Assembly: GCA_030606485.1 (NCBI GenBank)
Contig: JAUWGH010000002.1
Span: forward strand, 180,001 to 212,000
DNA from: Promethearchaeota archaeon
GTDB lineage: Archaea; Asgardarchaeota; Lokiarchaeia; Sigyniarchaeales; SOKP01
DNA length: 32,000 nucleotides
Direction: 5' to 3'
Part shown: piece after piece, positions 19,482 through 29,554 of the stretch
Numbering within the stretch: the stretch's first letter is position 1
Layout of the letters: the number at the start of each line of letters is the position of its first letter
Translations under genes and position numbers: made by a program
Notes under the pieces: generated by a model
Seen by the model: only the letters and a program-made list of their open reading frames with translations
Databases searched by the model: none
What the model was told of the DNA's origin: nothing

Positions 19482-20993
19482 TTAGGAAATATATCGAATA
19501 ATTAAATCCTGAGTTTTTTCTAAAAGTAAAGGTAAGAACTCATCAATTTTTTCATTTTTTTCTTCATTATCCACGAAAAAAAGAAAGAACATTGGATTAT
19601 TTTCAATTATTGTCTTTTTTATTATTATTATATCATCAGGACTTATTTTATAAATTGCTTCATTTATATCCGTTTCTCTAAACCTTTCAAAAATCTTATA
19701 TAAATTAGTTATTTGTGGTGCCAAAATTTCAAAAACACTCTTAACAGAGGCTTTTAAAGGTTGTGATTCAGAGAAAATATATTTTATTTCACCAAGTAAT
19801 GAAGGACTATAAAAGTCAGCAAGTACTAGCCCTTGTTCATTCATTAACATTGAGATTTTTATGCCAATATCTTCAGAGAATCTACTTAAATTAAAGTTTA
19901 TTAATTTCCTGTTAGGAGATAATAATGATAATCCATGAGAATATGCTCTCAATATCGTATATACTGAAAAAATACTTGTTAAGAAATATTCAATATTTAA
20001 TTGTTTTTCTTGATTTATCTCTTCAATTTTTTTGACAATTTGATAAACTACATCCTTTATTTCAGTTGTTTCTTTTATATCTGGATCAACTTTGGAAATT
20101 ATGATTAACACTGGAATTTCTTGTTCATATTTTTTAATATTTTCGAGAATTTGGTTAAAAAATTGAAGACTTTCATCGATTCTTTTGGGATCTCTAATAT
20201 CTATGAAGTAATAAATTAAATCCGCATCATACAAATAGATTGGAGCCCTATTAAGAAATTTATCTCTTGATTTTTCTTGGCCAGATAAGTCCCACGTGAA
20301 AACATGACTGCCGAATGTTTCAAGATGTTTAATTTCTGCTCCTAATGTAGGTTTTAAACCTAATAATTTGGAATATTTTCGATCAATAGTTAATAAAAAG
20401 GATGTTTTTCCGGAATTATCTAGTCCAGTAAGAATAATTTTTAACTTTCTTGAAGAAGTTAGAGGTAAAGTGGGGTTTTTCTCAATTTCTAGCAAATTAT
20501 TGGTTAATTTTAAAAAAGTTGGTTCTAATATCTTGTTATCTACATAACCATTATTAATTTTTTCGTCAATTTCGGCTACAACTTCCAATATAAATGGTTT
20601 TAGCCTCTCAATATTATTATAAATAAAACTTCTTTTATTTTCATCAATTAGTATTGATAATGTTGAGGCAATTGGTCTCTCTAAAAAGCTGGTTTTTATA
20701 AAATGAAAAAACACTAAACTGGAAATCCGGAAATCAGGAAAGGGTATAATTCCGAAATAATTATAATCGGAAATTTCATTATCAGTAAATAATAAAGAAA
20801 GACTTTTAATCGAAATTTGATAAATATCTCTTAAACTCTGCTTAAATGCCCCACCTTCATTTTGGTTAGTATCACATTCATCTAAATTGGATAAGATTGA
20901 TTCAGGAAATATATATTTAGGCTCAGGTCCACGGTCACCATAAACAGAAAGTACAACTCCTTTTATACAACTTTCTTCGGGTATCTCTCTCAT
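19482..20993 (-). CDS. Longin(uDENN-like)-Rag-type GTPase-roadblock fusion, paralog B
   Basis: N-terminal VVLSVYGDRGPEP and YFGIIPFPD. G1 GLDNSGKTS, G2 PTLG, G3 WDLSGQ, G4 SKVD, G5 TSIF. C-terminal LLSPN..MLMNEQGLVLA roadblock-like domain. Confidence 0.85.
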   Translation of the reverse strand: MREIPEESCIKGVVLSVYGDRGPEPKYIFPESILSNLDECDTNQNEGGAFKQSLRDIYQISIKSLSLLFTDNEISDYNYFGIIPFPDFRISSLVFFHFIKTSFLERPIASTLSILIDENKRSFIYNNIERLKPFILEVVAEIDEKINNGYVDNKILEPTFLKLTNNLLEIEKNPTLPLTSSRKLKIILTGLDNSGKTSFLLTIDRKYSKLLGLKPTLGAEIKHLETFGSHVFTWDLSGQEKSRDKFLNRAPIYLYDADLIYYFIDIRDPKRIDESLQFFNQILENIKKYEQEIPVLIIISKVDPDIKETTEIKDVVYQIVKKIEEINQEKQLNIEYFLTSIFSVYTILRAYSHGLSLLSPNRKLINFNLSRFSEDIGIKISMLMNEQGLVLADFYSPSLLGEIKYIFSESQPLKASVKSVFEILAPQITNLYKIFERFRETDINEAIYKISPDDIIIIKKTIIENNPMFFLFFVDNEEKNEKIDEFLPLLLEKTQDLIIRYIS

Positions 20994-21020
20994 TAGTTAA
21001 TATTATACAAACAATGGCTA

Positions 21021-21105
21021 AAAAAAATTTGTATTGTAATAAACATAAAAATAAACATAAAAACATAAAAACATAAAAAAATTTGTATTGTAATAAACAT
21101 AAAAA
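21021..21105. repeat. 31-bp exact direct repeat (period 54) with internal AAACATAA tandem units, in a divergent intergenic region
   Basis: AAAAAAATTTGTATTGTAATAAACATAAAAA at 21021-21051 and 21075-21105; AAACATAA at 21041, 21053, 21061, 21069 and 21095. Confidence 0.9.
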
Positions 21106-21114
21106 AAAATAGGT

Positions 21115-27343: not shown

Positions 27344-27478
27344 TAAATCTCAGAGATTAATTTTTAGAATAATAATTTAAGGATTAATTTTTTTAACTTT
27401 TTAATAATTTATAATACCAAGAGCTAAAACATTTATTAAATTTTTATCAAAGTTCTATTGATTGAAAAGGAGTAAAAC

Positions 27479-27916
27479 ATGAAGGATAAAAAGCTACAAG
27501 ATGAGTTTGAATTAGTTAAAGATTTAATCCCAAACGTCATAAATAGTAAATTAGAGATTGTTAAATTTAAACCTGAAGCAATTATCAATTCATTATTACT
27601 TGAAACAGCCGCAACAAGAGAGGAGGCTACTCTTACTACTCTGGATGTAATAAGAAAGATAATCTCTGCAAATCTAAAAATTTTAACTGCACCTTTAATC
27701 CGGGAATTAGTAAATGCTTCATTATTATCAAAGGGGTATGAATTATATCGATATCAATATACTAGACTAGGATTTCCTTTTTACGATTTTGGTAAGAAAT
27801 TGGAATCTCAAAATATTAGTAGCGAAGATATCTTTAATCATTTAAAAACAGAATATCAAGAGGTCCAAAAATTAATCCTTAAATTAAAAAAAAAAGAATT
27901 TAAGGACAAATCATAA
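27479..27916 (+). CDS. Stand-alone ATP-cone protein resembling the N-terminus of archaeal class III ribonucleotide reductase
   Basis: IINSLLLET, LTAPLIRELVNA.L, YTRLGFP.YD; ends after 145 aa with no reductase domain following. Confidence 0.75.
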   Translation: MKDKKLQDEFELVKDLIPNVINSKLEIVKFKPEAIINSLLLETAATREEATLTTLDVIRKIISANLKILTAPLIRELVNASLLSKGYELYRYQYTRLGFPFYDFGKKLESQNISSEDIFNHLKTEYQEVQKLILKLKKKEFKDKS

Positions 27917-28111
27917 GTTTCGCGTTAAAATAGAGAAAGAAAAGATATCCTAATTTTTCAAAGATTTAATGATTTCTAACGATTCTATAATTAAATTAAA
28001 TTAAATTTATGTTTTGGAACCAATTAAAAATAATTAAAGATTTAAATAAATTAAATAGATTTAACTAGTAAAAATCTATTAATTGAAATAATAGGTAGGA
28101 AAGGGTATAAG

Positions 28112-29554
28112 TTGGCTAATAGTCAGAATTCAAATGAATCCAATAATAACGTGAAGAATATAGAAGAATCTTCACTTATTAAAGCTATTGTTGTATCCAT
28201 TTTTGATGCGGAAGGGCCAACACCTAAATATTATTATCCTAAGGATTTGGATGAAAATTCACGCCTATTAATAGCAATGAAAACCATAAGTTTGCTTATG
28301 GGAGAGGCAACATATCAAGATGGCAATGCAATAGAAGGTGTTAATTATTTTGGCATTTTACCTTTCCCAGATATTAAATTAAATGGATTAACCTATTTTT
28401 TTCTTATATTTGATCCTGAAGCAAGAGGTCAAGCAAAAGCGGCTACAATTACTATTTTAGTTGACGAGGAAAACAAATCATTTTTCTATGATAATATTAA
28501 ATATTTACGAGTTATTATTGACAAATCTGCTTCTCAAATACAAAATGCTAAGGACTCAAATGAAATGAAAAATATTTTAGATTCTCTACGTATGCAATTA
28601 TTAAATTTTATTAAAGATTTAAAGCACCCCTTTTCCCAAACTCGACAGATAAAAATTTTATTTGCGGGATTGGATAGGTCCGGCAAAAGTTCATTCGTTC
28701 TTGGAATAGAGAAAAAATATTCTGAAATAATAAAAGTCTTACCAACTAAAGGTGTATCAAGGGAAATAAGTGAGTTATTTGGTGCTCAACTGATCCGATG
28801 GGAACTTGGTGGTCAGAAAAGCTACCGAGATCAATATCTTAAGGAAAGTGAAGTTTATTTATATAACGTTGATTTATTATTTTTCTTGATTGATGTTCAA
28901 GATTTAAAGAGAAGGGAGGAAGGATTAAAATATTTTAAAAGATTAATTGAATCTCTTGAAAACATTGATGATTACCCTCCGATTGTTTTATGTTTTCATA
29001 AAACAGACCCAGATATAAAAAATGACAAACGAATTCGCGAAAACATTGAATTCATAATTATGAGCATTCAAGAATTTACTCAAAATTATTACATTAAGAT
29101 ATTTGAGACATCAATATTTGATCACTGGTCATTGGTCTCTGCCTTTTCCTACGGTATTAGCCGATTATCTCCAAATAGAGAGATTTTTAGAAAACAATTG
29201 GAATGGTTTGCTAATAAAACTGATTCTGAAGCTATTTTACTCTTAGATGAAAAAGCAATAATTTTATCTAACTTTTCAAGAGATGATGTCTCAGGAAAAG
29301 TTTTCGAGATTTCCGCCCCTCATTTTCAGACATTATATAAGACATTTAAGGAATTTAAGATTTTGAAAAAAGATTTTCTTGTGTCTTCTGGAATTTCTCA
29401 AACTAAAAAGATATTATTTAAGAAACTAAATATTGAGAAATTTAATTTATATCTCCTTCTATTCATTAATAGCGAAGATTTTATTGAGAGAATTGATGAA
29501 TATTTGGATGAATTTATTTCACGGATTAAAATGCTGATACAAACATACATTTAG
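28112..29554 (+). CDS. Longin(uDENN-like)-Rag-type GTPase-roadblock fusion, paralog A (arginine-finger motif intact)
   Basis: TTG start. IVVSIFDAEGPTP, YFGILPFPD, FDPEARG. G1 GLDRSGKSS, G2 PTKG, G3 WELGGQ, G4 HKTD, G5 TSIFD. Roadblock-like tail LSPN..LLLDEKAIIL. Confidence 0.88.
   Translation: MANSQNSNESNNNVKNIEESSLIKAIVVSIFDAEGPTPKYYYPKDLDENSRLLIAMKTISLLMGEATYQDGNAIEGVNYFGILPFPDIKLNGLTYFFLIFDPEARGQAKAATITILVDEENKSFFYDNIKYLRVIIDKSASQIQNAKDSNEMKNILDSLRMQLLNFIKDLKHPFSQTRQIKILFAGLDRSGKSSFVLGIEKKYSEIIKVLPTKGVSREISELFGAQLIRWELGGQKSYRDQYLKESEVYLYNVDLLFFLIDVQDLKRREEGLKYFKRLIESLENIDDYPPIVLCFHKTDPDIKNDKRIRENIEFIIMSIQEFTQNYYIKIFETSIFDHWSLVSAFSYGISRLSPNREIFRKQLEWFANKTDSEAILLLDEKAIILSNFSRDDVSGKVFEISAPHFQTLYKTFKEFKILKKDFLVSSGISQTKKILFKKLNIEKFNLYLLLFINSEDFIERIDEYLDEFISRIKMLIQTYI

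Follow-up and report, generated by a model that had tools for sequence, protein, structure and literature searches.

A Conserved Chromosomal Block with Three Rag-Like GTPase Genes and a Possible Longin GAP Module in an Asgard Archaeon

Introduction

Do Rag-like GTPase genes that lie close together in an archaeal chromosome encode the parts of one signalling complex, or do they merely share a history? The question is raised by a stretch of 32,000 nucleotides (the window; positions 180,001 to 212,000 of contig JAUWGH010000002.1, assembly GCA_030606485.1) from the 3.75 Mb genome of a Promethearchaeota archaeon, which belongs to the same order as Promethearchaeum syntrophicum MK-D1 (genome G217). 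Gene A (19482-20993, minus strand, 503 amino acids) encodes a longin domain that has a GP motif and lacks a conserved arginine, then a Rag-like G domain and lastly a roadblock domain. Gene B (24432-25376, plus strand, 314 amino acids) encodes a Rag-like G domain and a roadblock domain, gene R (25554-26495, plus strand, 313 amino acids) a single roadblock domain preceded by a CxxC zinc ribbon and a variable linker, and gene C (28112-29554, plus strand, 480 amino acids) a longin domain with a GP motif and a candidate arginine finger, with a Rag-like G domain and a roadblock domain again following it.

An initial annotation had given these four open reading frames at the same coordinates, had described A, B and C as Rag-like GTPase-roadblock proteins, and had proposed that the four gene products form one complex analogous to the Rag heterodimer, Ragulator and a GTPase-activating protein (GAP). 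The description of A, B and C is borne out. Their best Pfam family is Gtr1_RagA (PF04670), with E values of 1.9e-23, 7.3e-28 and 2.1e-24, respectively, and the G5 motifs TSIF, TSIY and TSIF are followed by LSP, LYP and LSP and then by a roadblock-like tail, as had been noted; the TSI(F/Y) box is common to most other Rag-like genes of the genome and is not distinctive of this cluster. It was also rightly stated that the genes are not a single operon. Gene A faces away from the others and four unrelated genes lie between A and B, B and R share a strand, with R starting 177 bp downstream, and R and C are separated by a NERD-like gene on the opposite strand and an ATP-cone-like gene. The four genes occupy both strands and belong to three or more transcription units.

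The gene order at this locus is an old chromosomal segment of the order that includes MK-D1, and it is not proof of a complex. Within this segment, a longin-GTPase-roadblock gene was duplicated into C, which kept an arginine motif, and A, which lost it. We suggest, at slightly less than an even chance, that C and an Arg-less longin together form a GAP, similar to that of FLCN and FNIP, for a Rag-like GTPase which is most likely B.

Results

The Longin Domains of Genes C and A

The N-terminal domain of C (about residues 23-171; 28178-28624, plus strand) is a longin domain of the FLCN/SMCR8/NPRL2 type, as judged by its structure model (predicted local distance difference test score, pLDDT, 85.9), by its fold matches and by Pfam family Folliculin (PF11704), which is found in 22 of 24 orthologues of C and falls below the gathering score in the C of this genome. 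The top fold match is an Asgard longin, 8YQG, with a VIA Z of 18.8. Ranks 2-9 are taken by chains from entries of Lst4, FLCN-FNIP2, C9orf72-SMCR8, GATOR1/SEA and DENND1A (Z 10.3-12.9, root-mean-square deviation 2.5-3.8, 121-147 aligned residues), with TRAPP behind at Z 9.9. By fold, the C longin is therefore closest to GAP-type longins, these ranks being filled by chains of GAP complexes and by DENND1A. Sequence searches of the C longin against solved structures gave nothing meaningful, and from this follows that there is no residue-level alignment with FLCN.

The domain has both a GP motif before strand 2 (G35-P36; 28214-28219, plus strand) and a conserved arginine in the loop between strands 4 and 5. 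This residue, Arg105 (28424-28426, plus strand, codon AGA), is a candidate arginine finger in a D-x-x-A-R-G loop, and the model places it after strand 90-100 and before strand 108-118. Neither R105 nor G106 varies among the 24 aligned orthologues, and among the 42 orthologues counted the RG motif is present in all and the GP motif in 40. The loop between longin strands 4 and 5 is also where SMCR8 carries R147 and FLCN carries R164 (10.1101/2020.04.16.045708), and FLCN inserts its R164 finger into RagC (PMC9473554). The register of R105 with FLCN R164 was set by secondary structure and the Pfam range, not by a printed superposition.

It could be argued that Arg105 is not catalytic at all, and that the C longin serves as a scaffold or an exchange-factor platform in the manner of DENN, TRAPP and Mon1-Ccz1. 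DENND1A, with Z 10.9, falls inside the range of the GAP longins, the register is of the indirect kind just described, and most longin dimers act as guanine nucleotide exchange factors according to passages of PMC10933270. This explanation must be set against the invariance of R105 and G106, and against the report that only GAP longins combine the GP motif with an arginine in the beta4-beta5 loop, a combination which the longins of TRAPP, adaptin and DENND proteins lack (PMC12290439). We consider it highly improbable.

No C-terminal DENN or DENN-like module is found in C; the longin is instead followed by the Rag-like G domain and the roadblock domain. The model shows a helix-sheet tail at the roadblock-like end, and matches 8YL2, RagA/C and Gtr1/2. 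The G domain has intact motifs in nearly all orthologues, the C of this genome reading ELGGQ at G3. A search at an E value of 1e-25 recovered the C type from none of 155 genomes in other Asgard families. Having been found in one order only, it more probably represents a lineage-specific fusion than a forerunner of the eukaryotic complex.

Gene A carries a related domain (about residues 7-175; 20469-20975, minus strand), which is recognized by a profile match at 99.9% to the longin of C and has its GP motif at G22-P23 (20925-20930, minus strand). The initial annotation had missed this extra domain of about 170 residues in both A and C. Whereas C has both motifs, A has only GP, which occurs in 28 of 28 orthologues; the RG motif occurs in none of the 28, and in the loop alignment no arginine is conserved between beta4 and beta5. 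The G domain of A is also relaxed, with (S/T)KxD as G4 in all 28 orthologues and with the G3 glutamine lost in some. A and C are 32% identical over their full length, they are the only GP-longin-Rag-roadblock genes in the genome, and in the tree of G domain plus roadblock, where all trees held Asgard sequences only, they are sisters with support 98/95. It is this set of data that identifies A and C as the products of one duplication.

The presence of RG in C but not in A, with GP in both, matches the split between catalytic and non-catalytic partners in the longin GAP pairs of eukaryotes. C9orf72 has a GP motif but no finger (PMC12290439), and both subunits of a longin GAP pair are needed (10.1101/2020.04.16.045708).

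Gene B and a Possible Mechanism

Gene B matches the crystallised LokiRagO (PDB 8YL2) with an E value of 1.2e-82, and the B orthologue in the MK-D1 block is identical to 8YL2 over residues 2-341. Its G1, G4 and TSI-type G5 are intact, as is G3 with its glutamine, which reads DLGGQ in 37 of 38 orthologues; B alone scores Arl3 as well as RagA. Tandem duplicates of gene B occur in three genera (L013, L015 and L016 in genomes G006, G016 and G012), and in one genome (G013, L011) the reading frame of B is interrupted by stops.

To exemplify how the proposed GAP might work, consider the longin of C in a pair with an Arg-less longin, either that of A or a free one that is found in family f4 (below), as FLCN is paired with FNIP and SMCR8 with C9orf72. 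Such a pair would place Arg105 in the active site of a Rag-like G domain that has GTP bound, with that of B, in trans, as the likeliest target. Hydrolysis of GTP would then be sped up and the Rag-like GTPase switched off, while the roadblock tails could keep the partners together. The linker of about 10 residues between the last longin helix of C and its own G domain may limit action in cis, as judged from the model.

That B is the most likely target follows from its intact G3 in 37 of 38 orthologues together with the situation in genome G024. There, A has lost Walker A and G3 and C has lost G3, so that both are apparent pseudo-GTPases, but their longin domains are kept (L069:9363-10907, L018:11797-13161). 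C retains GP and ARG though its G domain has decayed, and an intact B stands in tandem with it.

A more specific arrangement is an A-C heterodimer, in which A and C would form a Rag-like pair through their roadblock domains and an FLCN-FNIP-like GAP pair through their longins, and would act on B or on each other. Complex prediction for A (residues 5-503) with C (residues 18-480), which gave 0.32, 0.30 and 0.25 in three runs, with a mark of 0.32, was counted neither for nor against binding. In this specific form the proposal appears to us unlikely.

An obligate heterodimer of paralogues, joined by their roadblock domains, is not found for B, whose MK-D1 orthologue was deposited as a homotetramer. 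From this follows that B can assemble without a Rag-type hetero-partner. Another Rag-like protein of Lokiarchaeal origin was deposited as a monomer (8ZLA, 9M28). Asgard Rag-like proteins need not be heterodimers, and hetero-complexes may nevertheless form in the cell.

Linkage of the Genes in Related Genomes

PF04670 scores above 60 bits mark 14 genes of the genome as Rag-like, among about 61 small GTPases; roadblock matches number 17. When the 14 Rag-like genes are placed at random among 3,398 genes and any triple within 10,073 bp is scored, the probability of such a triple is p = 0.0056; when the 14 are drawn from the small-GTPase loci, p = 0.011. For Rag-like genes, the trio is therefore closer together than expected by chance, and the spacing, for which the initial annotation had named random placement as the refuting outcome, is not random. 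The broader notion that any triple of small GTPases would be unusual was rejected, since three small GTPases of any kind fall within 10,073 bp with p = 0.39. The clustering is partly explained by history, because A and C are sister paralogues. Elsewhere in the genome there is a second Rag-like group, with three genes within 20 kb and two of them in tandem (G000 C8:37645-57629).

Across the family, the order TM220-MtrH-A-AIRS-SLOG-B-R-NERD-C-transglutaminase is found repeatedly, AIRS being an AIR-synthase-like gene. In the 23 family genomes from other genera, B and C are linked in 19 of 19, A and B in 14 of 15, and A and C in 12 of 13 cases; in all such counts, pairs split by a contig break are included among those 'apart', and related genomes do not make independent samples. 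In control regions inside the family, gene pairs are still within 10-20 kb in 24-25% of cases at 4-7 kb and in 9-14% at 7-12 kb, and in comparison with G026, from the sister family, in 13-16% and about 4%, respectively. Measured against these shares, conservation of the block is high. In MK-D1 the genes A, B and C have the same order and orientation as here, within about 13 kb, and the block is whole in the genus of MK-D1 and in G222, R not being found there. Outside the family, A and C are linked in 4 of 13 genomes and B and C in 5 of 14. The best-kept neighbours are A and AIRS (15/15 in the family, 13/13 outside), C and the transglutaminase-like gene (TGase; 15/15 and 13/13) and C and NERD (20/20 and 10/10).

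A number of observations weigh against a GAP made of C and an Arg-less longin. Inside the family all pairs are kept, those of bystanders included, and outside the family AIRS and TGase are linked in 5 of 13 genomes and SLOG and TGase in 4 of 9. In the complete genome G026 the block is broken between B and C, with A and C 80 kb apart, and A was not found in G009, which is 99% complete. The title of entry 8YL2 describes a homotetrameric RagA-like GTPase in the GTP-bound form, and the Asgard longin domain 8YQG was crystallised alone as a dimer, which together make homo-oligomers a real alternative. Four free longin genes with GP and ARG and without a GTPase lie elsewhere in the genome (G000 C10:230186, C10:27532, C2:403242 and C11:22985); they could serve as GAPs or as partners, which leaves C as one candidate GAP among several. 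As for the free longin of family f4, its grouping with A (91/85) falls below the starred level of support and involves a long branch, and the argument from G024 draws on a single genome.

Since bystanders are kept as well as the GTPase genes, synteny shows an old block and not a complex, and the claim that synteny proves a complex was rejected. The conservation of the neighbourhood, which the initial annotation had proposed as a check, holds in the family and in MK-D1 without being specific to the GTPase genes. Consider then the case where the linkage is historical only, the result of local duplication and slow rearrangement, and each protein is homo-oligomeric or has partners encoded elsewhere, with B as a homotetramer and C as a homodimer in which one chain acts on the other. 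This would account for the bystander pairs in and outside the family. It would also account for break points that differ between genera (in G024, for instance, the block is broken between A and B), and for G020 (66% complete), where C keeps its metabolic neighbours and A, B and R are not there. It agrees with the homotetramer of 8YL2 and with passages of PMC10933270 in which longin-containing GTPases were modelled as homodimers.

Two facts are left unexplained by history alone. The first is that A keeps GP in 28 of 28 orthologues but never the arginine. The second comes from family f4, where A was not found (genomes 63-88% complete). In four of four f4 genomes a free Arg-less longin gene stands head-to-head with C, one gene apart and in the same relative orientation as A to C here. 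The neighbours otherwise differ, and C has none of the remaining block genes beside it. The pair of C and an Arg-less longin, which alone stays together in f4, is the only linkage not accounted for by bystanders. We regard a purely historical linkage as a serious possibility, though a rather doubtful one.

In two genomes the block and its surroundings have been enlarged. The block of G222 (complete, 6.04 Mb; L112-L113) has gained genes that best match other small GTPases, one each after C, before B and before AIRS. In G009 (L038:144-13490), nine tandem paralogues of about 440 amino acids lie between MtrH and TM220, beside the site where A is missing.

The Roadblock Protein R

The initial annotation had seen R as a free roadblock protein. 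It does have one roadblock domain (PF03259, residues 206-284, E 4.5e-5), but there is also the zinc ribbon, and the linker between the two is variable and of low complexity. Its closest solved relatives are the Asgard roadblocks 7F8M and 7YH1. R resembles Ragulator (LAMTOR1-5) and EGO in that a roadblock domain is combined with an extended linker, and differs from them in having a single roadblock, in bearing a zinc ribbon where they have a lipidated anchor, and in its patchy distribution. With its roadblock as query at an E value of 1e-10, R was found in 3 of 14 genomes of the sister family f2 and not in the complete genomes MK-D1, G222 and G026; nor was it found inside the blocks of MK-D1 and G222, which keep A, B and C. 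R thus does not always accompany the Rag-like genes.

These results bear on the proposal that A, B, C and R form one complex like the Rag heterodimer with Ragulator and a GAP, R being the LAMTOR-like roadblock. B and R are linked in 21 of 21 family genomes and in both of the two outside genomes that hold both genes, in G024 the genes B, R and C form a tight tandem, the gaps being 119 and 53 bp, and all four genes are linked in most family members. On the other hand, R was not found in most f2 genomes searched or in two genomes that keep A-B-C, and it is one of the 17 roadblock matches in the genome. With phmmer, and with E values up to 1 admitted, it matches Asgard roadblocks but no LAMTOR. 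Among the annotated neighbours in the block there is neither a second free-standing roadblock gene nor a LAMTOR1-like anchor subunit, so that R and the block do not provide the two roadblock pairs on a lipid-anchored LAMTOR1-like scaffold that characterize Ragulator. The distribution of the genes over several transcription units on both strands counts in the same direction. The four-protein complex is, in our judgement, quite improbable and is not supported as it was proposed; the GAP-like part of it does exist as the longin of C, and a smaller module of longin GAP and Rag-like GTPase is plausible. The tie between B and R is plausible as well, with R at most an optional partner of B, and otherwise a passenger.

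Discussion

How do these proteins relate to known systems? The MK-D1 proteins WP_147663357.1, WP_147663355.1 and WP_147663364.1 are the direct orthologues of B, C and A, respectively, the difference being that R was not found in MK-D1. Passages of PMC10933270 describe longin-GTPase-roadblock proteins and Rag-like paralogues in MK-D1, and label the orthologue of C as LGR, that of B as XGR and that of A as XGR with an unknown N-domain. In these passages the N-domain of A is unassigned, and neither the block nor the Arg-plus/Arg-minus split is discussed.

With the eukaryotic Rag/Gtr proteins (RagA/B-RagC/D, Gtr1-Gtr2), which act in nutrient signalling, A, B and C share a G domain with a C-terminal roadblock, and RagA and Gtr1 are the best eukaryotic matches of C by sequence profile and by fold. 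They differ from them by an identity of about 20%, by the longins fused in A and C, by the 14 paralogues in the genome and by the homotetramer of the B orthologue. With FLCN-FNIP2, SMCR8-C9orf72 and NPRL2-NPRL3, the longins share their fold, the GP motif and a beta4-beta5 arginine in one paralogue only, while those of A and C are fused to Rag-like GTPases and not to DENN modules. The GP motif has been described in C9orf72, SMCR8, FLCN and NPRL2, and GP with a finger in Asgard longins, together with the question whether Rag or ArfR proteins are their targets (PMC12290439). C has the same two motifs, and in C such a longin is fused to a Rag-like GTPase.

Domain architecture and motifs are accordingly already published. 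What is new here is the recognition of the N-domain of A as the Arg-less sister of that of C, the position of the crystallised LokiRagO between these two genes, and the block-wide extent of the synteny. The block provides three candidate proteins in a cultured organism, one of them crystallised, and one residue to mutate, which makes the proposed GAP directly testable. If true, there would be longin-GAP control of a Rag-like switch without lysosomes, and if the A-C heterodimer were true as well, a prokaryotic counterpart of the lysosomal folliculin complex would reside in one block of the cultured archaeon MK-D1. The weight of this is limited by the occurrence of the C type in one order only, by the published layouts and motifs, and by a synteny that does not single out the GTPase genes.

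Additional Observations

The bystander genes were assigned by Pfam. Between A and B lie the AIRS gene (21115-22071, plus strand), a membrane protein with a zinc ribbon (22086-22850, plus), a SLOG protein (22924-23439, plus) and another membrane protein (23468-24244, minus). Between R and C lie the gene with a NERD/Mrr-like nuclease fold (26516-27343, minus) and the ATP-cone-like gene (27479-27916, plus). The 3' part of TGase (PF01841, E 2.9e-23) occupies 31581-32000 on the minus strand, and the gene runs to 32912 beyond the window.

Just outside the window, at 33027-33671 in its numbering (L041:8028-8672, plus strand), there is a gene of 214 amino acids which by eye consists of a longin and a winged helix. 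It follows C in many relatives and adjoins ribosomal L13e; it had no Pfam match, and the ESM Atlas gave only unnamed Asgard clusters. It could be another longin partner.

A scan with sigma-70 promoter and terminator models, which do not fit archaea, gave 87 hits where 91.0 were expected, i.e., chance level. In the 121-bp gap between the divergent genes A and AIRS, at about 21020-21110, an AT-rich stretch of about 30 bp occurs twice, with short AAACAT-type repeats between the copies.

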